DNA of 64,000 nucleotides from Acidimicrobiia bacterium (GCA_040882645.1 JBBEAX010000068.1:3230-67229); one strand, 5' to 3'. Counted from the first letter of the stretch, positions 1,194 through 33,304 are shown. Program-made: numbers and translations. Notes: a model not told the origin generated them from the sequence alone.

Positions 1194-1790
1194 ATCTGCG
1201 GCAGCAGCCGGAAGCCCGACTTCTCGATCACATGGTCGCGTGAGTCCGATGCCATCCGCGCCACCGCCCCCCAGTCGACATGGAGCAGTCTCCCGCCCTG
1301 TTTCATGACCCGCCCGCCGATCAGCACGGTGTCGACGTTCGACGTGTCCATGCCGGCGACGACCGCGGTGACAGGATCGTTCAGTGGGGTCACATTGAGT
1401 CGATCGGTGCGCAGCATCACAATGTCGGCCGCCTTGCCGGGGGTCAGGCTCCCCACCTTGTGCTCGAGCCCATTGGCCCGTGCCCCCTCGATGGTGGCGT
1501 ACCCGAGCACATCCCGCGGCGAGATCGGGTCCCTGCCGTGGGTGGACGCGAGTGCCCGCTGCAACGACATCACCGAACGCATCTGGTTGAACATGTCCCC
1601 CGGCACGTTCGTCTCGACATCGATGCTCAGGCTCGGTGCCAGGCCTCGATCGAGGAACTTCTGGATGGGCGGCATGCCGTGGCCCATCATCATCTCCACC
1701 GGTGATGCGAGCGAGATGGTCCCACCGGTGTCGACGATCATCTGGATCTCGGTGTCGTTGAGGGTCGTGCACGAGTCCTCCTGCCAACGA
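1190..1790 (-). pseudogene. C-terminal relic of a metal-dependent amidohydrolase (deaminase/chlorohydrolase-like)
   Basis: The 183-aa ORF 1190-1741 matches only the C-terminal half of ~450-aa amidohydrolases (..TLNDTEIQMIVDTGGTISLASPVEMMMGHG..GSLTPGKAADIVML..). Similarity runs about 45 nt upstream of the first Met and then ends against the purC start. The N-terminal HxH metal-binding half is absent. Confidence 0.6.
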
Positions 1791-1853
1791 ACGCGCGGAA
1801 CACGGCCGCGCGTCGGGTTACCATCGCCGCAGTCGAGGGGCGGGAACCCAACC

Positions 1854-10155: not shown

Positions 10156-10160
10156 GCAGG

Positions 10161-10262
10161 CCCGCTACCCGCTACCCGCTGACAGTCGCTGCCTGCTGCC
10201 GTGCCCGTTCGCCGGAAGAGAGACCGCGCCGCTCGTGACCCTTCTTGCGGAGGGCGGAAGGC
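10161..10262. repeat. Intergenic repeat element, copy A (heptads GCTACCC x2-GCTGACAG core + GGCCTTCCGCC-type tail); inverted partner at 12030-12175
   Basis: Bases 10168-10208 are the exact reverse complement of 12112-12152 (41 nt). Flanking sequence remains about 80 percent similar for roughly 100 nt. Confidence 0.9.
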
Positions 10263-10263
10263 C

Positions 10264-11523
10264 ATGAGAATCCTCCTCGTTGGGTCCGGGGGGCGGGAGC
10301 ACGCCATGTCTCGGGCGCTGACGACCTCTCCGGGGGTCGAATTGCTGATCGCGCCGGGGAATCCGGGGACCGCCGCACTCGGATCCAACCGGTCCGTCGA
10401 CGCCGATGACATCCCCCGGCTGGTGGCGTTGGCGCGGGCGGAGTCGGTCGACCTCGTGGTCCCCGGGCCGGAGGGCCCGCTGGTTGCCGGTCTCAGCGAT
10501 GCCCTCGAGGCGGCCGGAATCCCCTGTGCGGGGCCGGGCCGTTCCGCCGCCCGGCTCGAGGGGTCGAAGGCCTTCACCCGGGCGCTGGCCGAGTCGGCCG
10601 GCGTGCCATCCCCGGCGCACCAGACGGTCTCCTCCGTCGGCGAGATCGACGCGGCACTCGCCCGGTTCGAGGTGCCACCGGTGGTCAAGGCCGACGGGCT
10701 CGCCGCCGGCAAGGGGGTGTTTCTCCCCGACACCATCGAGGAATGCCGGGCCACCGCCCGAGACCTTCTCGGTGGCCGCCTCGGCACCGCCGGCTCGACG
10801 ATCGTCCTCGAGGAGCGCCTCTCTGGCGTCGAGATTTCAGCCTTTCATGCCTGTCGAGGCACCGAGGCGATCGCGCTCCCCCACGCGAGGGACCACAAGC
10901 GGCTTCTCGATGGCGACCGGGGGCCCAACACGGGGGGCATGGGGGCGGTAAGCCCCAATCCGCACGCCGCCGGGTTCGATGCGACGGTGCTGAATGACTT
11001 CGTGCTGCCCAGCCTACGGCGGCTCTCCGACGACGGCACTCCGTTCAACGGCTTCCTGTTCAGCGGGCTGATCGTCACCGACGGCGGTCCCCGCCTGTTG
11101 GAGTTCAACGTCCGTCTCGGGGATCCCGAGGCGCAGGCGATCCTGCCCCACCTGCCCGATGGGGTGTTCTCCGAGATCTGTGCCTGGGTTGCAGGGCTCC
11201 GTGGCCGGCCACCGCGCTTCGAACCAGATCGGCGCGCCACGTGTGCTGTGGTCCTGGCGGCGGCCGGATACCCGGAGGCGCCGCGCCGGGGCGATCCGAT
11301 CACCATCGACCCTGGCATCGAGACGGCTGATCGGTGGCTGATCCACGCAGCCACCCGGATGGATGCCGGGACCCTGGTGACCGATGGAGGCCGGGTTGGC
11401 GCCGTGGTCGGCCGGGGTGACACCGCCGCCGCCGCCCGGGCCGTGGCGTACGAAGGCGTGACCCGCGTACAGTGGGAGGGGATGGTCCATCGCCGCGACA
11501 TAGGAGCCGCCGCCGATGGCTGA
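10264..11523 (+). CDS. purD: Phosphoribosylamine-glycine ligase
   Basis: MRILLVGSGGREHAM.. starts at ATG 10264. It has an ATP-grasp body. The ORF-track start at 10201 lies inside the repeat element. Confidence 0.95.
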   Translation: MRILLVGSGGREHAMSRALTTSPGVELLIAPGNPGTAALGSNRSVDADDIPRLVALARAESVDLVVPGPEGPLVAGLSDALEAAGIPCAGPGRSAARLEGSKAFTRALAESAGVPSPAHQTVSSVGEIDAALARFEVPPVVKADGLAAGKGVFLPDTIEECRATARDLLGGRLGTAGSTIVLEERLSGVEISAFHACRGTEAIALPHARDHKRLLDGDRGPNTGGMGAVSPNPHAAGFDATVLNDFVLPSLRRLSDDGTPFNGFLFSGLIVTDGGPRLLEFNVRLGDPEAQAILPHLPDGVFSEICAWVAGLRGRPPRFEPDRRATCAVVLAAAGYPEAPRRGDPITIDPGIETADRWLIHAATRMDAGTLVTDGGRVGAVVGRGDTAAAARAVAYEGVTRVQWEGMVHRRDIGAAADG

Positions 11524-12010
11524 CGCCGTCCTGGTTGCCGTCATCGTGGGTTCGGCGTCGGATGGCGATCAGATCGCCGGGTGCCGCGAAGCCCTCGGAC
11601 GGCTCGGCATCGGCCACGAGGCCCGGGTCATTTCCGCCCACCGCACCCCAACCGACCTGGTCGAGTATCTCGGCGGCCTCGAGGAACGGGGCATCGAGAT
11701 CGTCATCGCCGGCGCGGGGATGGCGGCCCATCTCGCCGGGGTCGCCGCCGCCCATACCACTTTGCCGGTACTCGGGGTACCGCTCGCCTCTGGCGCACTC
11801 CAGGGCATCGACGCCCTGTTGTCGACCGTGCAGATGCCGCCCGGTGTCCCGGTCGCCACCCTCGGCATCGGCTCAGCGGGAGGCAAGAACGCCGCCTACC
11901 TGGCGGCGCGCATCCTCGCCCTCAGCCACCCCGATGTGAAGGCAAGGCTGGAGAAGGTGATGGCGGAAGATCGGGAGAAGGTGCGCGGGGCCACGCTTCC
12001 GGACGCGTAG
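11516..12010 (+). CDS. purE: N5-CAIR mutase / AIR carboxylase catalytic subunit PurE
   Basis: VAVIVGSASD.., SAHRTP and AGMAAHLAG motifs. No purK is adjacent. Confidence 0.95.
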   Translation: MADAVLVAVIVGSASDGDQIAGCREALGRLGIGHEARVISAHRTPTDLVEYLGGLEERGIEIVIAGAGMAAHLAGVAAAHTTLPVLGVPLASGALQGIDALLSTVQMPPGVPVATLGIGSAGGKNAAYLAARILALSHPDVKARLEKVMAEDREKVRGATLPDA

Positions 12011-12029
12011 GCCGAGTTCCGTTTCAGCC

Positions 12030-12175
12030 GGCCTTCCGCCGTCCGCCTTCAGCAAGAAGGCCTCCCGCCTTCCGCAAGATCACGAGCGGCGCGCTCCCCT
12101 CTTCCGGGTCGACGGGCACGGCAGCAGGCAGCGACTGTCAGCGGGTAGCGGGCAGCGATTGCGTAGCGGGTAGCG
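12030..12175. repeat. Intergenic repeat element, copy B (inverted relative to 10161-10262, with an internal duplication of the GGCCTYCCGCC..GCAAGA part)
   Basis: See copy A. Bases 12112-12152 are the reverse complement of 10168-10208. GGGTAGC-type heptads lie at 12143-12175. Confidence 0.9.
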
Positions 12176-12182
12176 TCCACTC

Positions 12183-12533
12183 ATGCTCAGGGTGGGTTCG
12201 ATCGTGATTCGGGTCGAGGACCTGGAACGGCAGAAGGCGTTCTGGAGTGCGGCGCTGGACTACGTCCCGCGCGAAGGCGACGACGAGACCTTCGTTCTGT
12301 TGCGCCCCCGCGGCGGCGTGGGACCCAATGTGTCGCTCGATGCCGTGCCGGCACCCGTCCAGCTCCCGCCCCGAATCCACCTCGACCTCTATGCAGAGGA
12401 CCGGGCAGCCGAGGTCGGTCGGCTGATCGCCCTGGGGGCCACCGAGATCCCCTGGGACAAGCGCCCCGCCGACGCCGACTACATCATCCTCGCCGACCCC
12501 GAAGGCAATCGGTTCTGTGTGATTGGGCCCTAG
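12183..12533 (+). CDS. VOC/glyoxalase-family small protein
   Basis: A 116-aa product, MLRVGSIVIRVEDLERQKAFW...HLDLY..DPEGNRFCV, which fits the glyoxalase/bleomycin-resistance fold pattern. Confidence 0.7.
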   Translation: MLRVGSIVIRVEDLERQKAFWSAALDYVPREGDDETFVLLRPRGGVGPNVSLDAVPAPVQLPPRIHLDLYAEDRAAEVGRLIALGATEIPWDKRPADADYIILADPEGNRFCVIGP

Positions 12534-12543
12534 GGGGCCGATT

Positions 12544-12720
12544 GGCCTCGCTTTGCTCGGCTGCAATTCGCAATTCGCAATACGCAATTCGCAATTCGCA
12601 ATACGACCGAGGACTCAAATCAGCGAGGCACCTCAGACGGGTCTCGACTCTTGCAGCCGAGCGAAGCGAGGCGCTCTGTCGAATTGCGAATCGCGAATTG
12701 CGGGGCCGAGCGAAGCGAGG
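12544..12720. repeat. Composite heptad-array element between convergent genes
   Basis: CCTCGCTTTGCTCGG lies at 12546-12560. (GCAATTC GCAATTC GCAATAC)x2 lies at 12563-12604. After a spacer comes GCCGAGCGAAGCGAGG at 12656-12671, then CTGTC + GAATTGC GAATCGC GAATTGC at 12676-12701, then GCCGAGCGAAGCGAGG at 12705-12720. The left and right halves are imperfect inverted repeats. Confidence 0.9.
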
Positions 12721-12723
12721 TCC

Positions 12724-15928
<3,205 letters not shown>

Positions 15929-17308: not shown

Positions 17309-18706
17309 GTGATGGAGAGATACGACCTAGTCGTCATTGGATCGGGCCCGGCCGGCGAGAAGGCCGCGGCCCAAGCGGCCTACTTCGGGAAATCGGTGGC
17401 CCTGGTGGAGCGCGCCGCGCGCCTCGGCGGGGCTCCCGTGAACAGCGGCGGCATTCCCGCCAAGACCCTGCGTGAGACCGCCCTCTACCTGACCGGCCAC
17501 ACCCGCCGCCACTTGTACGGCGTCGGCATGGAGTTGAGCAGCGACATCATGCTCGACCGGCTTCGCAAGCGTTCGGCCGAGGAGTCGGAACGCGCCGGCG
17601 AGACGGTGCGCGCCAACCTGGAACGCCACGGGGTGGTGGTGGTACACGGAGCCGGGCGCCTTGGCCCCGAACACACCGTGGCGGTCACACTGGCCGACGG
17701 TGGCGAAATGGCTCTGCAGGGCGAGGTGATCCTGATCGCCACGGGATCACATCCGTTCCGCCCGCCGAATATCCCGTTCGACGACCCCGACGTGGAGGAC
17801 TCAGACTCGATCCTCGCTCTCGACCGGATCCCCGACAAAATGGTGGTCATCGGAGGCGGACCGGTGGGATGCGAGTATGCGTCGATCTTCGGTGCGCTGG
17901 GGGTCGAGGTCACCCTCGTCGACATGGCCGAGCGGCTCATGCCCTTCCTCGACATCGACGCGTCAGAGCAGCTCGCCATCTGCTTGAAGGATCTCGGTAT
18001 CGAGGTGCTGGTCGGGTCGCCGCCCGCCACCGTCGACCGCGTCGAAGGCAAGCTCACCGTCACCATCGGTGACAGGGTGATGACGCCCGGCAAGGTGTTG
18101 TTCGTCGCTGGACGCAAGGGCAACACCGACGGTCTGGGACTCGAAGACGCCGGCGTGGACCTCGACGACCGCGGCCGGATCGTGGTCAATGCCGAGTACG
18201 AGACGACGGCTCCGGGGATCTACGCAGCCGGCGACGTGATCGGCCCCCCGGCGCTCGCCTCCGTCTCGGCCGAGCAGGGCCGGGTGGCAGCCTGTCACGC
18301 GTTCGACATTCCGTTCAAGGAGGGGGTGGACGAGTTGGCCCCCTCCGGGATCTACTCGATCCCCGAAGTGGGGGTAGTGGGGATGACTTCAGAACAGGCA
18401 GCAGCCGCCGGAATCGATTTCGAGATCGGCCGCTACGACTTCGCCGAGAACCCGCGAAGCCGGATCGCCGGCACCACCTACGGGATGATCAAGCTGGTGT
18501 TCCGCCGCGACGACCGCCGGCTCCTCGGCGTCCACATCGTCGGTGAGGAGGCCGCCGAGCTGGTGCACATCGGGCAAGCGGTGATCCACGCCGGGCAGAC
18601 GATCGACCAATTCATCGACTCGACCTTCAACATCCCCACCCGGAGCGAGGCCTACAAGTACGCCGCCTACGACGGTCTGCAACGGCTCGCGGAGCGGGGC
18701 GCTTGA
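17309..18706 (+). CDS. sthA: Soluble pyridine nucleotide transhydrogenase-like flavoprotein
   Basis: Has the FAD-binding DLVVIGSGPAGE motif and GG..VN.G.IP.KTLRE.ALYLTG, as in actinobacterial SthA. It lacks the CxxxxC redox disulfide of Lpd. Length is 465 aa. Confidence 0.8.
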   Translation: MMERYDLVVIGSGPAGEKAAAQAAYFGKSVALVERAARLGGAPVNSGGIPAKTLRETALYLTGHTRRHLYGVGMELSSDIMLDRLRKRSAEESERAGETVRANLERHGVVVVHGAGRLGPEHTVAVTLADGGEMALQGEVILIATGSHPFRPPNIPFDDPDVEDSDSILALDRIPDKMVVIGGGPVGCEYASIFGALGVEVTLVDMAERLMPFLDIDASEQLAICLKDLGIEVLVGSPPATVDRVEGKLTVTIGDRVMTPGKVLFVAGRKGNTDGLGLEDAGVDLDDRGRIVVNAEYETTAPGIYAAGDVIGPPALASVSAEQGRVAACHAFDIPFKEGVDELAPSGIYSIPEVGVVGMTSEQAAAAGIDFEIGRYDFAENPRSRIAGTTYGMIKLVFRRDDRRLLGVHIVGEEAAELVHIGQAVIHAGQTIDQFIDSTFNIPTRSEAYKYAAYDGLQRLAERGA

Positions 18707-18733: not shown

Positions 18734-19381
18734 TCAGTGCGAGGACGGGCCTGCGTGGTCGAAAACGGCCGTGAACGAGATCGGCTCGCCTCCGCGAATG
18801 TCGGCGATATCGGTGCAGATGACATGGCCGGTGAAGACCTGCCAGTAGATGAAGAACCCCGAACCCGACTTCTCTGGATCGTATCCCGAGGTGGCCAGTT
18901 CGAGCGTGCAGTCGCCGGGACGGGCACTGAACGAGCGCCCATCGACCGACACGGCGACGGTGATCGCCTCCGTCCTCGGCATTCCGGCCGCGACCTGATC
19001 CGCAACGAGTGCGAGCGTGACCCCCCTCGCGCTGTACCTCGCATCAAGGTCGACAGGCATGTTCGGGCCGTAGTCGGGGCCTTCGGAGCCCAACGACTCG
19101 AAGGCCAACGGAACATCGGCGACATCGAGGACGAAGCGTCCCTCTACAGAGCCGGAGATCTCGATGATGGCTGCCGGCACGGCGACGAAATCCAGCTCTG
19201 CGCTGAGTCCGGCCAGGAGCCCGGGTTCGGAACCGAAATCGGCCACAACCGCCTCGAGCCGTGGCCCGAACGTCGGGACCAGAGCCCGCCCGGTCGTGTA
19301 CCCCACCGCGAACACCAGCCCGAAGGTGGCCGCAGCGGCGAGGAGGTCCCTGCCCGCCCGGTTACGCCATGTCGCCGCCAT
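18734..19381 (-). CDS. Membrane-anchored protein of unknown function, paralog 1 of 3
   Basis: A 215-aa product with an Arg-rich N-terminus and one TM helix (FGLVFAVGYTTGRALVP). It shares motifs with 19507-20184 and 20184-20852: SG.V.GR, PR.E...V, G.C.LEL, F.G...C and S...VF. Confidence 0.75.
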   Translation of the reverse strand: MAATWRNRAGRDLLAAAATFGLVFAVGYTTGRALVPTFGPRLEAVVADFGSEPGLLAGLSAELDFVAVPAAIIEISGSVEGRFVLDVADVPLAFESLGSEGPDYGPNMPVDLDARYSARGVTLALVADQVAAGMPRTEAITVAVSVDGRSFSARPGDCTLELATSGYDPEKSGSGFFIYWQVFTGHVICTDIADIRGGEPISFTAVFDHAGPSSH

Positions 19382-19384
19382 CGG

Positions 19385-19507
19385 TCAGTCCTCCACCTCG
19401 AGCTTGAACACCGCCACCAGGCCTGCAATGAACGCCACACTGAACACCAGGGAGAACCCGATGAGGGCAACGAGGAGGTCCGTTGCGACCACGCCGCGCC
19501 GAGCCAT
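19385..19507 (-). CDS. 40-aa micro-ORF encoding a single TM helix (MARRGVVATDLLVALIGFSLVFSVAFIAGLVAVFKLEVED)
   Basis: It is below the ORF-track length cutoff. Its ATG (19505-19507) overlaps the upstream stop by 1 nt, and its stop lies 3 nt before the next ATG. Codons are GC3-rich. It resembles the TM anchor of the flanking paralogs. Confidence 0.5.
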   Translation of the reverse strand: MARRGVVATDLLVALIGFSLVFSVAFIAGLVAVFKLEVED

Positions 19508-20184
19508 CAGTGTTCCACCGTGTAGTCGAAAACCGCCACGAAGGACACCAGCGATCCGCTGCGTAGCTCGGCCACCTCACCGCACGCCAGGTGCCCCGCG
19601 AAGTGTGGCGTGAGCAACTCACCCCACGGCCTGGAGACGACCTTGTACCCGGAATCGATGAGCTCTAGCGTGCACGCCCCCCGGGCGGCATTGAACGTCT
19701 GCCCGCCCGACGTGAGCACCACCGTCATCCCCTCGCTGCGCGGCTCGTCGACCGGCATCTGATCGGCGATCAGGGTGAGCACCGCCCCCGAGCCACTGAA
19801 GCGAACATTGACGTCGATTGGAACGACACTCCCTTCCTCGAAATCGTCCCGCAAGAAGAAGCCACCTTGAGTCTCGCCATGATCGAGCAGAACACGCCCG
19901 TCGACGGCTCCGCTCGCCTGGAGCAGCGCCACCGGCCGTTCGAACGGGGCGAGGTCGGCCCGCATCGCCACGACCGACACCTCGCCGGCTCCACCCTCAC
20001 CGGCGCTGGGCAGTTCGATCTCACCGAGGGCTGACCGGAACACGGGCATCGCCACCCGGCCGGCGACGTACCCCACAGCGAACACGACGAGAAACGCCAC
20101 GATTGCGGCCGACACATCGCGGCCGAGGCGGCGACCCGCCCCGATGTCCTGCCCCACTCTCCCGATCCCGCCCTCCATGCCCAT
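19507..20184 (-). CDS. Membrane-anchored protein of unknown function, paralog 2 of 3
   Basis: I chose the start MGMEGG.. (ATG 20182-20184), which overlaps the stop of paralog 3 by 1 nt. It has the TM helix AAIVAFLVVFAVGYVAGRV and the same C-terminal motifs (ACTLELIDSGY, FAGHLACGE, SFVAVFDY). Confidence 0.75.
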   Translation of the reverse strand: MGMEGGIGRVGQDIGAGRRLGRDVSAAIVAFLVVFAVGYVAGRVAMPVFRSALGEIELPSAGEGGAGEVSVVAMRADLAPFERPVALLQASGAVDGRVLLDHGETQGGFFLRDDFEEGSVVPIDVNVRFSGSGAVLTLIADQMPVDEPRSEGMTVVLTSGGQTFNAARGACTLELIDSGYKVVSRPWGELLTPHFAGHLACGEVAELRSGSLVSFVAVFDYTVEH

Positions 20185-20852
20185 CAGAAGGAGAACTGCT
20201 CTGGGTCGTAGTTGAACACCACGACGATCGAGAGAGGCTCCTTGCTGCGGACCTCCTCGAGGCCCTCGCAGATCACCTGCCCGACGAACCTGGGCATGAT
20301 CCGGTCGGGAGCGTTGGACGGCGACCCGAACGACGGAGGCAGCGTGGTGAATCCGAGGTCGACGAGCTCCAGCTCGCACTGTCCCGGCTTGGCCACGAAC
20401 AGCAGCCGGTTCCCGGCGAATGTGACCGAGAGCTGCTCACTGCGCGGATCGCCGAGGGGAAGCTCGCGGGCGAATACCGCGAGGGTCATGTCCTCATTGT
20501 CGGATCCGGCGATGTACTTCATGTCCAGGTCCAGCGTCGGTCCCTCCGTGACGCCGGTATCCGTCCACTCGCGATAGTCCACAATGCCCAGCGCGAACTC
20601 GCCTTCGATGACACCTGACGCCCTTATGTACGCGGTGCCCCCCGGCTCGTCCACGGCGAGGCGGCCGTAGAGCGCGTGGAGCACCTCGCCGGTGGTCAAG
20701 CCTTTCGTAGTCGTTGGTTCAAGCTCGAGATTGCCGAGTGCCTGCGGGAACGACGGGACGAAGGCGCGTCCCACGGTGTAGGACAGCGCCAGGATCAGGA
20801 CGAAACCGATGAGCCCCACGCCGACATCCCGGAGGGCGCGCCGGAATCGCAT
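20184..20852 (-). CDS. Membrane-anchored protein of unknown function, paralog 3 of 3
   Basis: The start MRFRRALRDV.. (ATG 20850-20852) overlaps the permease stop by 1 nt. Length is 222 aa. It has a TM helix and the motifs QCELELVDLG, FVGQVICEG and SIVVVFNY. Confidence 0.75.
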   Translation of the reverse strand: MRFRRALRDVGVGLIGFVLILALSYTVGRAFVPSFPQALGNLELEPTTTKGLTTGEVLHALYGRLAVDEPGGTAYIRASGVIEGEFALGIVDYREWTDTGVTEGPTLDLDMKYIAGSDNEDMTLAVFARELPLGDPRSEQLSVTFAGNRLLFVAKPGQCELELVDLGFTTLPPSFGSPSNAPDRIMPRFVGQVICEGLEEVRSKEPLSIVVVFNYDPEQFSF

Positions 20853-21787
20853 CAGATCCTCCGCGAGCCCCGCCGTGGGTCCGTGACCTCGCGCAAGCCG
20901 GAACTGATCATGTAGAAGGATGAGGCCAGCAACGAGATCGAGAGGGCCCCCGCCATCAGGGCGCTCCAGGGAACCGATGTCCCCAGCGCGGTCCGGTAGG
21001 TCAGCGCGTTGTAGACGAGATTCCCCAGCCCGTAGCGGTATTCGGCGATGCCGAGGAACTCGACGAATCCCTGGGTGACCAGGGCCCCAACCACCCCCGC
21101 CAGAACCACCACGGCCACGTGGGGGATGACATGCGGCACCACATGGTGGGTGATGATCCAACTGGGGCGGCCACCGACCGAACGAGCAGCATCGATGAAT
21201 GGCTTCTCCATCACGGATAGCGCACGCGACCTGACCACGATCGCCGCCGGGCCGAATCCGAAGAACAGGCCATAGAGCAGACCCAGAGCGAAGGGCCCGA
21301 GCAGGCCTCGTTTGCTGGCGATGAGGAAGATCAACGGCGGGGGCAGCAGAACGAACGCGTCGGCGACCTGGGTCATCACCCGGTCGTATTTCCCGCGGAA
21401 GTACGCCGAAGTCGTCCCGACCAAGAGTCCGATCACTCCGGCGCTGACGGCCGTCGCCACGGCGACGAGGAATGTCGGGCGGAGGCCGTAGGTCATCAGG
21501 CTGAGCACGTCGCGGCCCAGCGAATCCGTGCCCAGGAGATGATCGAGCGTGGGGCCGGACGGATGGCTGATCGCCGGGTCGTGCCCGGTCTCCGGTCGAT
21601 AGACCCCCGGTTTCGAGGACCAGATGGTGGCCTGGAGGACCGGATGGATGAAGGTGAGCACTGCGAAGACACCGAGAATCGCCACGCCGGCGACGACCAT
21701 CTTGCTCTGCCGGATCTTCTTCCTGGTGTCGGCCCATCCCTCGATCTCGTGGTCGTATTCGATCTCGACGGCAGTGTCGTCGGTCAT
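20852..21787 (-). CDS. ABC transporter permease, DppC/OppC-like
   Basis: A 311-aa multi-TM protein with ..LLGTDSLGRDVLS.. and the EAA-like region ..FIDAARSVGGRP.. typical of peptide/nickel-family permeases. Confidence 0.85.
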   Translation of the reverse strand: MTDDTAVEIEYDHEIEGWADTRKKIRQSKMVVAGVAILGVFAVLTFIHPVLQATIWSSKPGVYRPETGHDPAISHPSGPTLDHLLGTDSLGRDVLSLMTYGLRPTFLVAVATAVSAGVIGLLVGTTSAYFRGKYDRVMTQVADAFVLLPPPLIFLIASKRGLLGPFALGLLYGLFFGFGPAAIVVRSRALSVMEKPFIDAARSVGGRPSWIITHHVVPHVIPHVAVVVLAGVVGALVTQGFVEFLGIAEYRYGLGNLVYNALTYRTALGTSVPWSALMAGALSISLLASSFYMISSGLREVTDPRRGSRRI

Positions 21788-22944
21788 ACCGCCTCCCCCT
21801 CGATGCGGATTCGGGGATCGATCGTTGCCTGGATGGCGTCCAGCACGATCCTGAGCACCAGACCGAGCAGCCCCACGATCGTGAGTATCCCGATGATGAT
21901 CGGCGTGTTCCCGGACTCGATCGCTTGGAAGAAGAGGCTCGCCACCCCGTTCAAATGGAGCTCGCGTTCGATGATGATCAGTCCGGTGATCAGGTAGGGC
22001 ACGCTGGTGATCAGCCTCGAGATCGCCGGGAGCACCGCATTCGGCGCCACGTGGCGGTCACGGATGGAACGCTCCGGCAAGGCCTTGGCCCGGGCGGTGA
22101 ACACGTAGTCCTCGGTCATCTCTGCCGAAACCCCGGCACGCATCACGAGCATGCTCTCCCCGAATGCGATCAGCACGATGGCGATGGTCGCCACCACCGC
22201 ACTTGGCCACAGCAGCCGATCGATGGCCGCGGCCCACACGCCGAGCGAGAGCAAGGACGCCACGAAGGCCGCCAGGCCGATCGGAATGGCAAGCATCCCC
22301 AGCACCCGGCGGTCGTTACGCCAGGCCCAACCTCGCAAGAGGATGCCCCCCACGAACGCCGCCACCAGCCCTACCGCGAGCACGTTCAACAGTGGACCCT
22401 CTGGCACCGGGCCGAACGGCTTGGGGTCGAGACCGAACCAACTCCGCACCTGGAAGAGGCGGTCTTGACCGAAGTAGATGAGGAGGAACACCAGCCACGG
22501 CGGGAATGCGGTGAACAGCAGCACGCTCCCAGCGCTCGAGGCGCCGCTGAAGAAGCGATTGCGGCTCCACGCCACCACCCGCCCGATCCACTCGCCGAGC
22601 AGGTACGCCACCATCCCGCCGACGGCGAAGATGGCCACCGTGGTCGGGAGCACCGACGCCACCAGGGTCGACACGCGCTCGCCGTCGTAGGACTCCCCGA
22701 GGTCGGCCCGGACGAAGTTCGCCATGTAGACGAGCCATTGCACCACCAGGGGGCGGTCGGTCCCCAACTGCTCACGGATCGCTTCCACCGCCCGTGGCCG
22801 CTGCCCGACACCCACGGCGAAATCGAACGGCAGCAACAGGTTCACTGCAAAGAATGCGATCGAGGCGAGCAACACGAGCGTCACCAGGGCCCACAGAACC
22901 CGCCTGAGTACGAACCTCGTCATGAGAGTGCCGGACGGTAACAC
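21784..22944 (-). CDS. ABC transporter permease, DppB/OppB-like
   Basis: ..MTRFVLRRVLWALVTL.. is the classic DppB N-terminus, so the alternative ATG at 22923 is plausible. ..DYVFTARAKALPERSI.. is also present. An ATGA overlap links it to the next permease. Confidence 0.85.
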   Translation of the reverse strand: MLPSGTLMTRFVLRRVLWALVTLVLLASIAFFAVNLLLPFDFAVGVGQRPRAVEAIREQLGTDRPLVVQWLVYMANFVRADLGESYDGERVSTLVASVLPTTVAIFAVGGMVAYLLGEWIGRVVAWSRNRFFSGASSAGSVLLFTAFPPWLVFLLIYFGQDRLFQVRSWFGLDPKPFGPVPEGPLLNVLAVGLVAAFVGGILLRGWAWRNDRRVLGMLAIPIGLAAFVASLLSLGVWAAAIDRLLWPSAVVATIAIVLIAFGESMLVMRAGVSAEMTEDYVFTARAKALPERSIRDRHVAPNAVLPAISRLITSVPYLITGLIIIERELHLNGVASLFFQAIESGNTPIIIGILTIVGLLGLVLRIVLDAIQATIDPRIRIEGEAV

Positions 22945-23050
22945 CGAACACCAAACGGGTGACTCTTTCGAAGAGTGACCGGCGGACTACCGGATAGGCA
23001 CGATGAGATGAAGTCCCGGTGGGGGCTACTCTCACGGCGGCCTGACCCGG

Positions 23051-25180
23051 GTGGTGAGCTTGCGAGGAACCGTGGACGCTCCTTCCGCCGCAGGGGGTCC
23101 GATCCGGCGCGTGATGGCGGCCACCGATCGTTCCCCAACCGGCGACGCCGCCGCGACCTGGGCGGCGGCCCTCGCCAATCGTCATGAGGCTGTTCTCCGT
23201 CTGGTACAAGTGGTGATCCCGCAGCCTCCCACCGCGGAGATAGCCGCCGACGCTGCGGCCGGGACGAGTGCCCTGACCGAACGGGTCGACCTCCTCGCCG
23301 ATCAACTCCGAGGCTTTGCCGCCGAACTCGCCGGATCCCGGGGCGAGTCCATCGTCGTAGTCGATGACGATCCGGCGCGCGCCCTGCTCGAGGAAGCGCA
23401 CCGGGCGGAGATCGACACGATCGTGGTCGGCAATGCCGGCATGAGCGGCCGCAAGGAGTTCCTGCTCGGGAACATCCCCAACCGGATTTCGCACAACGCC
23501 ACCTGCACCGTGATCATCGTCAACACCGCCGGCGCGGCGCAATCCCCTGGTTCGGTCCCCACCCTCCCCGGGCTGCTCAAGCCCGATCCGGAGCCCGTCG
23601 AACCCCATTTGCTCGGCCGCGCCACCCACCTTGCCGCGGTGATGGCGAAGCACGGGTTGCAGAGCCTCTTCGGCCGCGGACCCGACGATCCGCTCGAAGC
23701 GCAGCGGGCTCAGGCACGCCGTCTCCGCACTGCCCTCGAGGAGCTCGGCCCCACCTTTGCGAAGTTGGGGCAGATCCTGTCGACCCGCGCCGACCTGCTG
23801 CCACCCGTGTTCATCGAAGAGCTCTCGATGCTCCAGGACAACGCTCGACCGCTCACCGAGGAAGAGGTGGTCGGCGTCGCCGAAGCGGAGTTGGGGGTTC
23901 CCTGGGAGGACGTATTCGAGAGCATCGAGCGGAAGCCGATGGCTGCGGGCACGATCGCCCAGGTACACGGGGCGATCACCGCAGACGGTCGTCGGGTGGT
24001 GGTGAAGATTCAGCGTCCGACGGCTCGCGAAGACATCATGCAGGACCTGGCGCTGCTCGAAGTGCTTGCCGAGAAGACCGATAAGCGGCCCGCTTTGCGC
24101 GAGGTCGTGGACATGCCGGCCGTTTTCGAGCACCTCTCCGCCTCGCTGCAGCGGGAACTCGACTTTCGCAACGAGGCCGCCAACATCGAACGCATGCGGC
24201 GGGTGCTCGCCCCGTACCCCCGGATCGATGTGCCCCAGGTAGACCACGAACTCACCACCGAACGACTCCTGGTGATGGAGCGGATCGACGGTGTGGCGAT
24301 TCGCAACGCCCCTGACAGCCCGGCCCGCAAGGAGGCGGCCCGTCAGCTTCTCGAGTCTTTCTACCGGCAGATCATGTCCGAAGGCTTCTTCCATGCCGAC
24401 CCGCACCCCGGCAACCTCATGTGGGCCGATGACAAGGTATACCTGCTCGACCTCGGGATGGTCGGTTTGCTCGAGCCGGACCTCCGTGAGCAGCTCATGC
24501 TGTTGTTGCTGGCCTTCTGGCAGGAGGACGTGAGCTTCCTCACCGATGTCACCCTGATGCTGGCTGCCGGCGCCGAGCGCGACGATCTCGATGTCGGTGC
24601 GATCGAGGCCGAATTGGGATCGCTGATGGCGAGGTATCGCGATGTGCCCCTCAGCGAGCTGCAGCTTGGCCCAATCCTCCAGGAGATGACCGAGATCTCG
24701 ATCCGCCACCGGATTCCCCTTCCTGCCTCGATGACGCTCACCGCCAAGGCGATGGCACAGATGCAGCTGGCGACCGGTGAGTTGGATCCCGACCTCGACC
24801 CGTTCGACGTGGCCGGGAAGTTCCTGATGCGGACCCTGACCGGCGGCATCCGCGAGAAGATCAACCCGCAGCGGATGTTCTATCAAGCCCAGAAACTCAA
24901 GGTCAGGGTCACCCGCATGGTGGAGGCCATCGAGCGCCTTGTTGGGGCGCGGCCCGGTCCCAGGATGAGGATCGACTTCGGCGCCGAGAAGCTCGAGGCG
25001 ACCGTTCGTCGCGCCGGCTATCGGCTGACATTCGGCCTGATCGCCGCCGGAGCGCTGCTGGGCGCGGCGATCGCCTCGACTGCCGACCGGACCTCCGACT
25101 GGCTCCCGGTGACTCTGGTGGTCACCGCGTTCGCCTTTGTGCTCGCCCTGCTGGTGGACATGCTCCGCCGCCGGGACTGA
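23051..25180 (+). CDS. Universal stress protein domain fused to an ABC1/UbiB-family atypical kinase, with C-terminal TM helices
   Basis: The N-terminus has ..VMAATDRSPTGDAAATWAA...IVVGNAGMSGRKEFLLGNIPNRISHNATCTVIIVNT (USP). The rest has ..FAKLGQILSTRADLLP.., ..AAGTIAQVH.. and ..FFHADPHPGNL.. (UbiB/ABC1). The start may be ATG 23114. Confidence 0.85.
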   Translation: MVSLRGTVDAPSAAGGPIRRVMAATDRSPTGDAAATWAAALANRHEAVLRLVQVVIPQPPTAEIAADAAAGTSALTERVDLLADQLRGFAAELAGSRGESIVVVDDDPARALLEEAHRAEIDTIVVGNAGMSGRKEFLLGNIPNRISHNATCTVIIVNTAGAAQSPGSVPTLPGLLKPDPEPVEPHLLGRATHLAAVMAKHGLQSLFGRGPDDPLEAQRAQARRLRTALEELGPTFAKLGQILSTRADLLPPVFIEELSMLQDNARPLTEEEVVGVAEAELGVPWEDVFESIERKPMAAGTIAQVHGAITADGRRVVVKIQRPTAREDIMQDLALLEVLAEKTDKRPALREVVDMPAVFEHLSASLQRELDFRNEAANIERMRRVLAPYPRIDVPQVDHELTTERLLVMERIDGVAIRNAPDSPARKEAARQLLESFYRQIMSEGFFHADPHPGNLMWADDKVYLLDLGMVGLLEPDLREQLMLLLLAFWQEDVSFLTDVTLMLAAGAERDDLDVGAIEAELGSLMARYRDVPLSELQLGPILQEMTEISIRHRIPLPASMTLTAKAMAQMQLATGELDPDLDPFDVAGKFLMRTLTGGIREKINPQRMFYQAQKLKVRVTRMVEAIERLVGARPGPRMRIDFGAEKLEATVRRAGYRLTFGLIAAGALLGAAIASTADRTSDWLPVTLVVTAFAFVLALLVDMLRRRD

Positions 25181-25339: not shown

Positions 25340-27409
25340 TCAGTCGGGATCGGGCACTCGGTACGCCACCAAGACCGATTGCGGCCCACTGGGGCCAACG
25401 ACCACGGGAATCTCGAGGACGACCTGATGCACGAGACAAAGCTCAGTCGACTCCTCGGTGCAGTAGTACACCGTGAGCTCCCCGCGCAGGGTCGCTTCCC
25501 CGGTAGACCAAGTGACCGGGATCTCCAGCGGCAGCCCCGGCTCCACGATCGAGACGAGTGGATGGTCGCCGAAATCGGCAGCATCACCCTCGACCGACCA
25601 CGCGATGGTCAAGGGAGCGATGTCGTTCAGCTTGTAGCCCGCCGGAAGCATGAGGTCGAGCACGATCTGCCCCGCACCAGGCCCGGCGGCCACCGCCCCG
25701 ATCTCGAAGGTGGCCGGGCCTCCATCTGCGCCGGTGTAGGGAAAGCGCTCAATCCCATACAACACCAGGGTCTCGGTTTCACCGGTCGTCGCATCCACCC
25801 GGCGAATCACGTGGTTGTTGGTGTCGGCGACATAGAGGGACCCGTTGGCGAACGAGACGCCCCCCGGCTCCGAGAAGCGCGGCTCCAGCCCATCGGCCCA
25901 GCCCTGATCTCCCCCGGCGAGGGTGGTCACCGCCCCGCTCGCCAGATCGATCACCCGCAGGGCCGAGTTGTAGGTGTCGGCGACAAAGAGCAGTCCGTCG
26001 ACGTGCACGACCCCGAGAGGATGCTGAAAGCGGGCTTCCGGTCCGACTCCATCGACCAAGCCGAAGTCGAAGAGGTTCTTCGGCGTGCCGGCCAGGAGAC
26101 CCACCTCGCCATCCGCGCCCGGGTCGGCCCAGCGGATCGACGACGACTCCGAGTCGGCGAAATAGATCCGCCCTGCGCCATCGATGGCGAGGCCGCTCGG
26201 CTGGGCCAGCTCGGCGAAGAGACGCGGGCCATTCAGCACGCTCTCCCCTCCAGTGCCTGCAAAGGGATCGAACCTGGCCGAACCCAGGTCCAGCGTCCAC
26301 AGCTGGTGCGAGCCGGCCATGGCGATGTAGAGCACCTCGCCGTCCACGAGGAGATCCCATGGGGAGGAGAGCTCCACATCGGGCGCAATGCCCGGGCGAG
26401 GTGGATAGGTCGAAGACTGCTGCCCATTGCCCAGCAGCGTCGTCACCGACCGCGAGGCGAGGTCGAGAGCACGGATCGCGTGGTTGCCCACGTCGGCCAC
26501 CAAGAGGGTGCGCCCCCCATCGACGAGCGCCATCCCCTGTGGTTGGTCGAAGGACGCGGCCGCGAAGTCGCCTCCCTCGAGGCCGCGCGCTCCGGAGCCA
26601 GCCACATCGATGACCTCGCCGGTCTCCAAGTCGGCGACCACGATGCGATGGTGGTTGGTGTCGGCAACGAACAGGCGGCCACCGACAGGGTCGGCGAGAA
26701 CCTTGCCCGGAAACGACAACACGGTGTCGGGTGCCCGCTCGACATCCAGGTCGATCGGGATGCGGTTGATCAGTCCTCGCTCGTCGAACTCCTCGACGAG
26801 CGAGTCGATCACGGGTTGGAAGATCGGGTAAATCCCCTCGCCAGCGTGGCCACCCACGATGTTGCCGGCCGGGTCGATGAGCACGACGGTCGGCCAGGCG
26901 TTGGCGCCCCAATCACGCCACACCGCAAAGTCGCTGTCATTGACCACCGGATGCTCCAGCCCGTAGCGCCGGATGATGTCGCGGATGTTCTCGGTGTCGC
27001 CTTCATTGGCAAACTTTGCACTGTGGACCCCGATCACGACCAACTCGTCGGCGTACTCCGCCTCGAGCCGCTTCAGGTCGGGGATGATGTGGATGCAGTT
27101 GATGCACCCGTAGGTCCAGAAGTCGATCAAGACCAGCTTGCCGCGCAGCTCGGCGAGGCTCAGAGGACGCTCGACGTTGAGCCACTCGAGACCATCGGGA
27201 AACTCCGGAGCGGGAGTCGTGCCGGCAAACGAGTCGGTGTCACCGCCTTGTGCCGTAGTAGAGCTCGACGGCGTCAGGACCGGGCCGTTCCCGGTGGACC
27301 CGTCGCTGCACGCTGACGCCGCCATCAGCAGGGCGACCACGAAGAAGAGCCGATGATTCACGGGAAGCCAACGCCGCGGGCACCGCCGACCGTTCCCCCA
27401 CGAAATCAC
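25340..27409 (-). CDS. Secreted/lipoprotein thioredoxin-like (TlpA/ResA-type CxxC) domain fused to an NHL-repeat beta-propeller (NHLRC2-like)
   Basis: Has a signal-like N-terminus (..LFFVVALLMAASAC) and FWTYGCINCIH (CxxC). Repeated ..L.FP.GV..D..G.L.VADT.NH.I.. NHL motifs follow. The GTG start overlaps the fadD stop (GTGA). Confidence 0.85.
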   Translation of the reverse strand: MISWGNGRRCPRRWLPVNHRLFFVVALLMAASACSDGSTGNGPVLTPSSSTTAQGGDTDSFAGTTPAPEFPDGLEWLNVERPLSLAELRGKLVLIDFWTYGCINCIHIIPDLKRLEAEYADELVVIGVHSAKFANEGDTENIRDIIRRYGLEHPVVNDSDFAVWRDWGANAWPTVVLIDPAGNIVGGHAGEGIYPIFQPVIDSLVEEFDERGLINRIPIDLDVERAPDTVLSFPGKVLADPVGGRLFVADTNHHRIVVADLETGEVIDVAGSGARGLEGGDFAAASFDQPQGMALVDGGRTLLVADVGNHAIRALDLASRSVTTLLGNGQQSSTYPPRPGIAPDVELSSPWDLLVDGEVLYIAMAGSHQLWTLDLGSARFDPFAGTGGESVLNGPRLFAELAQPSGLAIDGAGRIYFADSESSSIRWADPGADGEVGLLAGTPKNLFDFGLVDGVGPEARFQHPLGVVHVDGLLFVADTYNSALRVIDLASGAVTTLAGGDQGWADGLEPRFSEPGGVSFANGSLYVADTNNHVIRRVDATTGETETLVLYGIERFPYTGADGGPATFEIGAVAAGPGAGQIVLDLMLPAGYKLNDIAPLTIAWSVEGDAADFGDHPLVSIVEPGLPLEIPVTWSTGEATLRGELTVYYCTEESTELCLVHQVVLEIPVVVGPSGPQSVLVAYRVPDPD

Positions 27410-30950: not shown

Positions 30951-31937
30951 CTATCCGGAACGTAGGGATCGCAAGGTATCCCGGAGGAGACCCGGACCGG
31001 CGTACACCAGTCCGGTATACATCTGGACCAGGGTCGCTCCGGACTCGAGGCGTTGCCGAACGTCCTCGGTGGTCATCACTCCCCCCGATGCCACGATCGG
31101 CAGCCGGCTGGCGGCCACCGCGCGGCGGAGACGTTCGAGTGCCAGTGGCCCCAGCGGGGCACCGCTCAGCCCGCCCGGCGGCGCATCGGCGATCCCCGGC
31201 CGGGTGGTGGTGGTGTTCCCGACGATGAAGCCGTCGACCCCGGCGGATTCGGCGGCACGAATCGACTCCTCGAGATCAGCCGAATCGGGAGACAGCTTCA
31301 CCAGGAGCGGCAGGGGTCGCCCGAGCCGTTCTGCCCATTTAGCGCGGCGCCCGATGATCGGGCCGAGAAGCGCAGCCAACTCGCGTTCGAGGTCGCGAAG
31401 ACCGGCGGTGTTGGGCGACGACACGTTCACCGCCAGATAGTCGGCAAGCGGTGCGAACCGATCGACCAGCGTCAGATAGTCGGCAACTCGGTGATCCGCC
31501 GGGGTATCGGCGTTGGGCCCGATCGACACCCCGAGCACCACCCCACCGGGATGCTTCCTGCCGGCGAGCCGGGCAGCCACTCGGTCTGCCCCGGCACCGG
31601 GGAAGCCCATACGATTGACCAGAGCGTTCTCGTCTTTCAGCCGATGGACCCGCGGCCGGGGGTTTCCCGGCTGCGGCCGAGGCGTCACGGTTCCGATCTC
31701 GACATGCCCGAATCCGAGCGACGCCAGGGCCTGCCAGGCCGAACCGTCCTTGTCGTATCCGGCGGCGAGTCCGAGAGGGTTGCGGAAGCGCAGGCCGAAT
31801 GCCTCCACCGGTTCCACCTCGAACCGGCTGCGCCGCCGCGGCACCCAGCGGGCCAGACGAACCCCGCGAAGAGCCAGCCGATGTGCCCGCTCGGGGTCCA
31901 GCCGGAAACCGAGAGCGCGCAGTGCCCGGTACATCAC
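30951..31937 (-). CDS. pyrD: Dihydroorotate dehydrogenase (class 2, quinone-dependent type)
   Basis: ..FRNPLGLAAGYDKDG....GFGHVEIGTVTPRPQPGNPRPR..NRMGF....LVKLSPD.. Confidence 0.92.
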   Translation of the reverse strand: MMYRALRALGFRLDPERAHRLALRGVRLARWVPRRRSRFEVEPVEAFGLRFRNPLGLAAGYDKDGSAWQALASLGFGHVEIGTVTPRPQPGNPRPRVHRLKDENALVNRMGFPGAGADRVAARLAGRKHPGGVVLGVSIGPNADTPADHRVADYLTLVDRFAPLADYLAVNVSSPNTAGLRDLERELAALLGPIIGRRAKWAERLGRPLPLLVKLSPDSADLEESIRAAESAGVDGFIVGNTTTTRPGIADAPPGGLSGAPLGPLALERLRRAVAASRLPIVASGGVMTTEDVRQRLESGATLVQMYTGLVYAGPGLLRDTLRSLRSG

Positions 31938-33304
31938 CGTCCGGCGAGAAACGAAGCGACCGCCCGCCGCTCGTCTTCGCCGATCGCCCCGGCCTCCCCC
32001 AGTTCGTCGACGAGGGTCTCCAGGTTGGTGATGGCGTGCATCTTGATCCCTTCGCCGGCGAGGGCCGCCCGCGCCCCGCTGTCCCGCTCGATCAGCACCA
32101 CCAGGTCCTCGACCACCAGCCCGGCGTCACGCAGCAGACCGGCCGCTTCGATCGCGCTGATCCCGCTGGTGACCACATCGTCGACCAGCACCACCCGATC
32201 CCCCGCTCGCCATTCGCCCTCTACCCGGGCACCGGTGCCGTGCTCTTTGGACTCCCGCCGCGGCCATACGAGCGACTTCGACCGTTCGAGGGCAACCGCC
32301 GTCGCCAGGGGCAGTGCCCCGTAGGGAACCGCGCCGACGTGGTCGTATGTGAGCATCTCGAGAACCGAGCCGTACGAGGCAGCGACCCGACGAAGGAGGC
32401 CGGGCCGACCGGACACTCGCCGAAGATCCACATAGATGGGAGAGACCACCCCCGACCGGAGAGTGAACTCGCCGAAACGCACACATCCAGAGGCGTGGAG
32501 ATCGGAGGCGAGGCCGCGAGGCCGGGGGGCCGCCTCACGGGGTCGGACTCCGCGAAACGAATCCCGCAGGTCCGCGGCCATGGCGCCCGGGTCCGGCGAA
32601 TCTCCGACGAGGCGCGAGGAAGGGATCAGCACCCCGCGGCCATCGGACCGCAATGCCACCCCGATCGCCTCAGGATCGGCTCCCTGCGGGCCGACCCCCG
32701 GTACCAGGATCCAGTGCTCGGGCATCATCGCCCGCACCTTGGCCATGGCGCCCGGAAAGGTTGCTCCCACGACGACTCCGAGCCGATCGGATTGCGCCCA
32801 CCCGGCGGCCAGCCGAGCCACACGCTCGTAGATCACCTCGCCGGTGTCGAGAGTGGCGTCCTGGAGATCGGCACTGCTCGGGTTCGACGTGCGGCACAGC
32901 AACCAGACCCCCCGGCCAGGATGGGCCAGAAACGGGTCCACGGCGTCGCGCCCCAGGTAGGGGCTCAGTGTCACGGATCCTGCCCCAACGACGCCAAAGC
33001 ATGCCTCGGCGTAGGCCGCCGCCGTCGATGCAATGTCCCCGCGTTTGGCGTCGAGAATCGTTGGAATCTCGTCGGGGACCGACGCCACCACTTCGATCAA
33101 TGCCTCGATACCGGCGGCCCCATGGGCTTCGAAGAACGCTGAGTTGAACTTGAACGCCGCGGCGGCATGGGCGGTGGCCGCGATCAAGTCGAGGGACACT
33201 CGGCGCGCCTCGACAGCATCCTTGGCCCGCGGGTCGATCCCGACGCACAGCAAGGAGTCGACCGCACGCGACCGCTCGTCCAGGGCCTCGAAGAACGTCT
33301 TCAC
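31934..33304 (-). CDS. pyrFE: Fusion protein: OMP decarboxylase (PyrF, type 2; N-terminal ~260 aa) + orotate phosphoribosyltransferase (PyrE; C-terminal ~190 aa)
   Basis: The N-terminal part has ..LCVGIDP.., ..[13 protein letters not shown].. and ..VPGVGPQG.. (PyrF). The C-terminal part has ..[21 protein letters not shown].. and the PRPP loop ..[13 protein letters not shown].. (PyrE). It is a single 456-aa frame. Confidence 0.9.

Follow-up and report, generated by a model that had tools for sequence, protein, structure and literature searches.

A lineage-restricted module of orphan OppBC-type permeases and a variable array of membrane-anchored beta-domain proteins in Acidimicrobiia

What would three copies of an unrecognised membrane-anchored protein be doing directly behind the membrane core of an importer whose other genes are not at hand? 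The question is raised by a 64-kb stretch of DNA (~67% GC; GCA_040882645.1 JBBEAX010000068.1:3230-67229) from an Acidimicrobiia bacterium, taken from a sediment metagenome and here called the window. On its minus strand, at 18734-22944, lie six tightly coupled open reading frames (ORFs), i.e., those of two OppB/OppC-like permeases, three paralogs (A, B and C) and a 40-codon micro-ORF. Our comparisons show that the locus belongs to a module restricted to Acidimicrobiia and related Actinomycetota, in which an orphan long-form OppBC-type permease pair is followed by a birth-and-death array of the anchored proteins. The permeases belong, as a divergent branch, to a known family; the accessory proteins and the make-up of the module appear to be new. 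The features are listed below, with the evidence for each in brackets (dN/dS, ratio of nonsynonymous to synonymous substitution rates; AF2, AlphaFold2; HMM, hidden Markov model).

21784-22923, minus strand: perm1, long-form OppB/DppB-like ATP-binding cassette (ABC) importer permease, 379 aa (Pfam, NCBIfam, PDB 8wd9_B, hydropathy, dN/dS)
20852-21787, minus strand: perm2, OppC/DppC-like permease, 311 aa (Pfam, NCBIfam, alignment A7, dN/dS)
20184-20852, minus strand: paralog A, 222 aa (family alignment, orthologues, dN/dS)
19507-20184, minus strand: paralog B, 225 aa (family alignment, AF2 ectodomain model, dN/dS)
19385-19507, minus strand: micro-ORF, 40 codons, in-frame remnant of a D-type paralog (protein ends, DNA alignment, family HMM, junction-spanning contigs)
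18734-19381, minus strand: paralog C, 215 aa (family alignment, P0005, full-length AF2 model, dN/dS)
22924-23050, no strand: divergent intergenic region, 127 bp, presumed operon promoter region (position only)

On re-reading, every junction matched the preliminary description of this locus, which had reported six minus-strand ORFs linked by short overlaps and one gap. Read on the minus strand, perm1 and perm2 share an ATGA overlap at 21784-21787 (GGTATGACC); TGATG overlaps of 1 nt join perm2 to A (20852), A to B (20184) and B to the micro-ORF (19507), and a 3-nt gap at 19382-19384 (TGACCGATG) separates the micro-ORF from paralog C. The GC content at third codon positions is 0.81-0.87 in all six ORFs, and the pattern of GC by codon position is that of real genes in a 67% GC genome. 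The operon is far beyond chance, and about 35 independent contigs hold orthologous operons. Its extent to 22944, as first described, is right for the maximal ORF, which opens with a GTG at that position, but ATG 22923 is the likelier start of perm1 because orthologues share the 379-aa length and residue 8 is where the Pfam and NCBIfam profiles start. A second ATG of paralog B lies at 20178, 6 nt further on; the gene call in the database starts there, giving 223 aa.

In Pfam, perm1 matches BPD_transp_1 (PF00528; 48.9 bits, cut-off 26.4) and BPD_transp_1_N (PF19300; 41.7 bits, cut-off 23.8), and perm2 matches BPD_transp_1 (55.6 bits) as well as OppC_N (PF12911) at 20.8 bits, below the gathering score of 23.9. 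With NCBIfam, perm1 scored ~105-118 bits against Opp3B, Opp4B and NikB, which have cut-offs of 350-480 (the best was Opp3B, 118 bits, cut-off 480), and the best match of perm2 was Opp4C (126 bits, cut-off 350); no equivalog cut-off was reached for OppB/C, DppB/C, NikB/C, GsiC/D, SapB/C or YejB/E. Judged from these profiles, perm1 and perm2 are members of the Opp/Dpp/Nik family that are orthologous to no characterised transporter. The EAA loop of perm1 (EDYVFTARAKALPERSIRDRHVAPNAVLPA) is read as EDYVFTARAKALPE...NAVLPA and that of perm2 (EKPFIDAARSVGGRPSWIITHHVVPHVIPH) as EKPFIDAARSVGG...HVIPH, and alignments show that both are kept in orthologues 45-53% identical. The two proteins are a heterodimer-type BPD_transp_1 pair with intact EAA coupling loops. 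Because these loops are conserved, the permeases look functional and dependent on ABC ATPases, a dependence that established knowledge of type I importers would imply. An extracytoplasmic loop of perm2 (FIHPVLQATIW...Y.P..G.DP.I.HPSGP) is clade-specific and near-invariant in alignment A7.

Alignment of perm1 with Mycobacterium tuberculosis DppB (PDB 8wd9_B; E=4e-24) falls into two blocks with a ~75-aa insert between them. Hydropathy predicts eight transmembrane helices for perm1, and the insert holds an extra transmembrane hairpin (residues ~178-225) that is absent from M. tuberculosis DppB. In a database search, such long-form permB proteins formed a clade of 373-416 aa, with scores of at least 142 bits down to 31% identity, and were sharply separated from canonical OppB proteins (305-347 aa, at most 110 bits). 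The extra hairpin was considered as a docking site for the paralog family and rejected, since long-form permeases of canonical operons have it too.

Paralogs A, B and C are 31-34% identical pairwise and share an Arg-rich N-terminus, one transmembrane helix, a juxtamembrane GR..P.F motif and an all-beta ectodomain in which a pair of Cys is conserved. Their 42 invariant columns include the two Cys and the other motifs originally reported. Orthologues of paralog A are 83-84% (P0008/P0011) or 49-53% (P0014/P0015) identical to it, and P0005, from an NCBI Acidimicrobiia metagenome-assembled genome (MAG), is 99% identical to paralog C. The family is rare: a word-indexed search of 5.8 billion clusters returned 16 relatives, one of them from an NCBI Acidimicrobiia MAG, and an exhaustive HMM search of 1.84 billion representatives returned 63 clusters at E≤1e-3, nearly all of 190-250 aa with the same architecture. 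In the word-indexed search the broad alignment A4 gave fewer matches than a narrow one, an effect of the word prefilter. P0070, a eukaryotic repeat protein of 1537 aa, was rejected as a member, its match being a spurious one of low complexity.

No known family claims these proteins. Pfam and NCBIfam gave no match for the three paralogs or the micro-ORF, and Pfam searches of 65 family members gave scattered single-member matches, none recurrent (the best was SNase, E=5e-4 in one member; the rest had E≥0.025). No substrate-binding protein (SBP) family of NCBIfam or Pfam matched any of the 65 members, and the AF2 fold is not bilobed alpha/beta. Against PDB sequences the best match of the family HMM was CopC, not significant at E=0.035. 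Neither the accessory family nor the module architecture is described in Pfam, NCBIfam or PDB, and a narrow full-text literature search also found no description. The preliminary description had left the family unrecognised, and sequence profiles and structure searches alike leave it so.

The alignments and models show the paralogs to be type-II anchored proteins, N-in/C-out, with an all-beta ectodomain of ~150 aa, in agreement with the topology first proposed from the Arg-rich N-terminus and single transmembrane helix. Invariant or nearly so across the 65 members are the two Cys, A71, G77 and F207, and the juxtamembrane residues G31, R32 and P36 (found in 52-56 of 63 members) are conserved as strongly as residues of the core domain. 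Because G31-R32...P36 is conserved, the N-terminal segment would be a functional anchor rather than a disposable signal peptide. No lipobox was found; the three window paralogs have no Cys in their first ~120 residues, and the hydrophobic segment is followed by GR..P. The Cys occur in pairs, with exactly two in 52 of 65 members and four in 11, and D111, R136, E138, E161 and R196 (paralog C numbering) are conserved charged residues of the ectodomain. In the full-length AF2 model of paralog C (pLDDT 66.7), residues 2-34 form an N-terminal helix and 70-210 a beta domain; the model of the paralog B ectodomain alone, which is confident (pLDDT 84.4, pTM 0.80), has one short helix and about ten meander strands in consecutive hairpins, with the two invariant Cys on the adjacent antiparallel strands E122-136 and E139-157. 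An extracytoplasmic location of the ectodomain is predicted because an Arg-rich N-terminus precedes a single transmembrane helix and the Cys are paired and lie on adjacent strands.

Foldseek searches of PDB and BFVD with the models of paralog C and the B ectodomain returned nothing at E<1e-3; the best matches had E=0.035-0.06, and TM-scores were mostly ≤0.31, the highest being 0.42 on the target side. For the B ectodomain these included LolA (8veh_A; E=0.035, TM-score 0.17) and the lipocalins Can f 1 and BcnB (TM-score 0.20-0.31), and for paralog C avidins (TM-score 0.12-0.17). None of the calycin-like and LolA-like matches is significant (E<1e-3, TM-score above 0.5); they are suggestive of a meander beta fold only.

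Is the association with permeases particular to the window? Related loci (L numbers) were reached through family members or with permease alignment A7; a scan of genome contigs with paralog B gave no match. Seeding with permC led to nine GTDB genomes, each an Acidimicrobiia or Actinomycetota MAG, together with 21 metagenome contigs. In some 35 related loci, whose flanks vary, no family member is more than ~5 kb away from a long-form OppBC-type permease pair. On the family-seeded contigs the pair is directly upstream in all eight informative cases (L001, L002, L004-L009), usually with overlapping stop and start codons, and distant members keep the linkage despite other neighbours (riboflavin genes in L006, an additional permease in L007 and L008). 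Flanking genes scanned with Pfam are unrelated, and include multicopper oxidase, amidohydrolase, UPF0047, gamma-glutamyltranspeptidase and HD-domain proteins and purA. The tight coupling to a DppBC/OppBC-like pair pointed out earlier is thus conserved across divergent genomes and different flanks, which argues for a real functional link. Co-occurrence, put forward at the outset as a check, holds in one direction: in the loci collected, the family is always near long-form permeases, but in at least five loci the permease pair has no adjacent family member. Most permease-seeded loci carry one to five members directly downstream:

0 adjacent members: L012, L016, L031, L032, L033; also L043, whose contig holds only the last 78 codons of permC
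1 adjacent member: L005, L009, L013, L014, L037-L040, L042
2 adjacent members: L001, L011, L024-L026, L028, L041, L044
3 adjacent members: L004, L006, L030; the window has three and a stump
4 adjacent members: L003
5 adjacent members and a 3' fragment: L010

The tandem triplet of the preliminary description is therefore not a fixed arrangement; the array is a birth-and-death cluster of zero to five copies. The permC tree has loci without a member in three branches or more, so loss has been recurrent. Because the permease pair is intact in such loci, the paralogs are accessory components, not obligatory receptors, unless members are encoded at a distance. Copies of this sort are seen in other loci: one lies 2-3 kb upstream of permB in each of L002, L011 and L025, and one ~5 kb from a canonical Opp operon in L022.

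Several of these loci have features of their own. L020, encoding a perm1 relative of 48% identity, carries permBC, two family members and a convergent second permBC pair, so that at 10001-15539 two long-form pairs face each other with the members between them. In L007 (1-4966) and L008, a third long-form permB (384 aa) is followed by larger members, of 247 and 278 aa with long helical linkers, and then by permB-permC and another member (239 aa). In the zero-copy locus L016, repeated palindromic-looking units downstream of permC (813-1350) translate as LLAIGYW / IANSQ*PIA strings and may, by their sequence, be an element like repetitive extragenic palindromes where an array was lost. In L012, also without a member, a gamma-glutamyltranspeptidase gene (2914-4653, minus strand) lies 0.66 kb upstream of the permeases on the opposite strand, with a 204-aa ORF between; this neighbour, seen once, is a possible hint of glutathione or gamma-glutamyl peptide transport.

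Where, then, are the remaining importer genes? Pfam searches of the flanking ORFs found no SBP or ABC ATPase gene beside the operon, as had been noted at the start, and there was none among 25 Pfam-scanned ORFs outside the operon in the 64-kb window; these comprise genes for purine and pyrimidine biosynthesis, carAB, an intein-bearing recA, RNase Y, miaB-like genes and ftsK. A scan for motifs in all six frames, covering the full 64 kb, turned up only the Walker A of FtsK. Neither SBP_bac_5 nor OppD/F (ABC_tran + oligo_HPY) genes were present in any orphan-type locus examined, and no ORF with both Walker A and LSGGQ motifs occurred across the 21 metagenome loci. A complete SBP/OppD/F set near family-type permeases was found only in the deep relative L022 (33% identity to perm1), which has an SBP_bac_5-B-C-OppD-OppF operon with a long-form permease and, 1.2 kb downstream, a permB of the orphan type (40% identical to perm1), a permC with a frameshift and, in convergent orientation, a family member. 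In L019 (32% identity, 49% GC), which lacks a member, an SBP_bac_5 gene lies 1.6 kb from permBC. Judged by these deeper relatives, the orphan-type module descends from canonical Opp systems, and in at least one genome, that of L022, OppDF could be shared. A conventional SBP/ATPase set serving these permeases from elsewhere, with the paralogs not co-conserved, had been named at the start as grounds for refutation; given L022, such service may occur, but the linkage of the paralogs is conserved.

The micro-ORF turned out not to be a cistron of its own, as it had been counted in the original six-cistron unit, but an in-frame stump. Its product, MARRGVVATDLLVALIGFSLVFSVAFIAG followed by LVAVFKLEVED, corresponds to the first 29 residues, with the transmembrane helix, and the last 11 residues of a 223-aa D-type member of the family. 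Compared with P0036 (L004:2254-2925, which has an extra CxxC), 27 of 29 and 10 of 11 residues match at the two ends, and DNA alignment with L004 gives ~90% identity at both ends around a clean gap of 549 bp (183 codons). The deletion junction, at 19420/19421, is in frame, and the family HMM still matches the micro-ORF (E=1.2e-6). Contigs from two sediment samples (X1, X2) span 19420/19421 without differences, and in a related soil strain (X3) the sequence runs on from 19421 into an intact D-type gene. The ancestral order A-B-D-C is kept in L003. An origin of the micro-ORF as an independent small gene was rejected, because the L004 alignment and the junction-spanning contigs show a deletion stump; read from these alignments, it is what an in-frame deletion has left of a fourth paralog, of the D type, which is intact in related strains. 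P0065 (42 aa), in which the N-terminus of A is fused to a D-type C-terminus, looks in sequence like a larger deletion of the same kind. The ectodomain of the D-type subfamily (L004 2254-2925, L003 1441-2091, P0026, P0042, P0056, P0059) carries one more CxxC pair, e.g., NEQCIGCYPDE; this could be a redox or metal site or else a second disulfide.

Selection differs between the two halves of the operon. Nei-Gojobori estimates of dN/dS against orthologues were as follows:

Permeases: 0.06-0.18 (perm1 0.06-0.18; perm2 0.07-0.10)
Neighbouring Lpd-like gene: 0.07-0.15
Paralogs: 0.29-0.39 (A 0.30 against L003; B 0.39; C 0.29-0.31)
Paralogs, very divergent or recombinant pairs: up to 0.6-0.77

Purifying selection on the permeases is strong, equal to that on neighbouring housekeeping genes, and the paralogs are real, constrained genes that evolve four to five times faster than the permeases. 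Close relatives differ by gain, loss, fusion and truncation of array genes. Chimeras occur in L009 and P0065, a deletion stump in the window, a leftover 3' fragment in L010 and a copy with a frameshift in L023 (46% identity, with permBC). The single paralog of L009 (8639-9286) has a B-type N-terminus and a C-type remainder; the C-type part has a dS of 0.22 to paralog C of the window, against ~0.7 for the adjacent permeases, a contrast that indicates recombination or gene conversion within the array. In its copy number of zero to five, its chimeras and remnants and its higher dN/dS than that of the permeases, the array evolves in a receptor-like manner.

How does the module compare with known systems? 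perm1 and perm2 are homologous to the B/C permeases of Opp/Dpp/Nik (PepT) importers, e.g., M. tuberculosis DppABCD (8wd9) and OppABCD (8j5q), and share with them the EAA loops of both proteins and BPD_transp_1_N in perm1, OppC_N in perm2 being below its gathering score. Unlike these systems, the operon and the 64-kb window have no OppA-type SBP and no OppD/F, perm1 has its extra hairpin, and the operon runs on into an anchored all-beta array that canonical systems lack. Systems with several or tandem SBPs sharing one translocator, such as the OppA paralogs of Borrelia and the Ami/Ali proteins of streptococci, likewise have fast-diverging, tethered extracytoplasmic proteins beside one permease pair, varying in number among relatives. 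However, classical SBPs are bilobed alpha/beta proteins of 300-600 aa, whereas the domain here is all-beta, of ~150 aa, on a type-II transmembrane anchor, and has no detectable relation to SBPs.

Actinobacterial mce operons combine two permease genes with anchored tandem paralogs and an unlinked Mkl ATPase (PMC1810536). With mce (yrbEA-yrbEB + mceA-F, Mkl/MceG often unlinked) and MlaFEDB the module shares gene order, an N-terminal transmembrane anchor, a beta domain and an ATPase encoded elsewhere, but its permeases are BPD_transp_1 rather than MlaE/YrbE proteins and its copy number is 0-5, not the fixed six of mce. The MCE/MlaD domain (PF02470) had no match at E≤1 in the 65 members, hhalign of family alignment A4 with Escherichia coli MlaD gave a probability of 1%, and the Foldseek lists contained no Mce, MlaD or PqiB chain. 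LptC, the single-helix, beta-jellyroll partner of LptB2FG, resembles the paralogs in its size (~190-225 aa), N-terminal anchor, all-beta domain and ABC association; it belongs to another ABC class, the host organism lacks lipopolysaccharide biology, the hhalign probability was 0.2%, and LptC was absent from the Foldseek lists.

The surroundings of the operon in the window are those of housekeeping DNA. It is bordered by a divergent gene (23051-25180, plus strand), encoding a Usp domain fused to an ABC1/UbiB atypical kinase, and by a convergent Lpd-like flavoprotein gene (17309-18706, plus strand); beyond the kinase lies a gene for a thioredoxin-like and NHL-repeat protein (25340-27409, minus strand). 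The kinase gene is syntenic in L002 and L009 and the thioredoxin-NHL gene in L009 only, and both are absent from more distant loci. The presumed promoter region (22924-23050) holds no sigma-70 consensus site and no Rfam family, consensus scans for promoters and terminators gave matches at chance level only, and Rfam gave neither a riboswitch nor a leader, whether on the operon (E≤1) or on 11 related loci (gathering threshold). A look through RNA-seq runs turned up none that contains the stretch. Elsewhere in the window, an intein that carries a LAGLIDADG homing-endonuclease domain splits recA (48720-51110, minus strand), whose 796-aa ORF matches RecA, Intein_splicing and LAGLIDADG_3. A PurN-like formyltransferase is fused to PurH (8104-10155, plus strand; 683 aa; Formyl_trans_N + MGS + AICARFT_IMPCHas), and OMP decarboxylase to a phosphoribosyltransferase domain (31934-33304, minus strand; 456 aa; pyrF-pyrE-like). 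A 427-aa SAICAR synthetase ORF (1305-2588, plus strand) has its Pfam domain at residues 188-409 only, and its unmatched N-terminal extension of ~187 aa may be a mis-set start or an extra domain. A 326-aa protein (38690-39670, minus strand) in an otherwise housekeeping region has four matches to RTX calcium-binding nonapeptide repeats (HemolysinCabind).

What the anchored proteins do can be answered only in graded terms. Our preferred reading, held tentatively and at somewhat less than even probability, is that they are optional, interchangeable extracytoplasmic subunits of an Opp-type importer whose ATPases are encoded elsewhere. The locus would then supply a divergent type I (Opp/Dpp-type) ABC importer with its membrane core and with a variable tandem array of a new family. 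The permeases would work with OppD/OppF-type ATPases from elsewhere, possibly with a conventional SBP as well, much as mce operons depend on the unlinked Mkl/MceG ATPase and Streptomyces sugar permeases share MsiK; the anchored proteins would sit beside the permease dimer through their conserved transmembrane and juxtamembrane segment, where they would capture substrate or tune the specificity of the translocator, each paralog serving a different ligand. Because copy number varies and chimeras occur, they would be independently acting modules rather than an obligate hetero-oligomer of the Mce type. Several points weigh against this reading. At least five loci (L012, L016, L031-L033) have an intact permease pair and no member within the 1.3-10 kb available; an indispensable receptor is therefore unlikely, and the role may instead be regulatory or protective. 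The ectodomain matches no known substrate-binding fold in Foldseek, neither a riboswitch nor a conserved neighbour hints at the substrate, and the perm1-type hairpin, found also in L019 and in the canonical operon of L022, is not specific to the family. The whole dataset, moreover, consists of metagenome assemblies of uncultured organisms. A bolder proposal, that the family is a new class of substrate receptor displacing the bilobed binding protein in Acidimicrobiia, we regard as rather doubtful. Bilobed periplasmic binding proteins are regarded as essential to type I ABC importers; here a disulfide-braced all-beta domain of ~150 aa on a type-II transmembrane helix would take the receptor's place, with tandem paralogs giving several specificities to one ATPase-sharing translocator.

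The survival of the permease pair without adjacent family genes in several lineages is what would be expected if the anchored proteins were modulators, i.e., regulatory, gating, stabilising or chaperone-like assembly subunits that bind no substrate, comparable to LptC, the transmembrane helix of which modulates LptB2FG, with an SBP_bac_5 protein from elsewhere delivering the substrate. The transmembrane and juxtamembrane motif is also the most widely conserved N-terminal feature, and a canonical SBP gene lies near long-form permeases in L019 and L022. We nevertheless consider such a role unlikely: two to five paralogs at 30% identity with rapid turnover would not be expected of a regulator or assembly factor, the conserved D111, R136, E138, E161 and R196 of the ectodomain suggest a site, and the similarity to E. 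coli LptC is negligible by hhalign. The same turnover, with birth-and-death, chimeras and elevated dN/dS (0.3-0.8), is typical of conflict genes, and an array that is dispensable in some lineages and confined to a narrow clade (63 clusters) might shield or mask the permease from entry of phage, bacteriocins or peptide antibiotics, or have another envelope role and be co-transcribed merely for co-expression. That we hold to be improbable, because whole-gene dN/dS stays below 1, the Pfam-scanned flanks are housekeeping purine, pyrimidine and carAB genes with no mobile-element, toxin or defence genes, and the array genes remain tightly coupled in translation to those of the permeases across 45-50% divergence. 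Finally, the missing ATPase and SBP genes, and the frameshifted permC or family member in L022 and L023, might indicate that a canonical Opp system was duplicated and that the pair is the copy now silent or in decay, followed by lineage-specific ORFs with no joint function. This explanation is strongly disfavoured: the permeases are as constrained (dN/dS 0.06-0.18) as the adjacent Lpd-like gene (0.07-0.15), the ORFs are intact in about 35 contigs that span dS values above 0.9, conservation extends to the EAA loops and the extracytoplasmic loop, and purifying selection acts on the paralogs themselves.

If the reading of the paralogs as optional importer subunits is true, small anchored beta-domain partners and distant ATPases would extend the known architectures of ABC importers, for which the nearest parallel so far is the unrelated Mla/Mce/Lpt class. 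The array is also a clear case of birth-and-death evolution; the stump in the window, left by an in-frame deletion, is something that gene callers would annotate as a small membrane protein. For a protein family that has been without annotation, from an abundant, uncultured soil and sediment lineage, the module provides a testable context.

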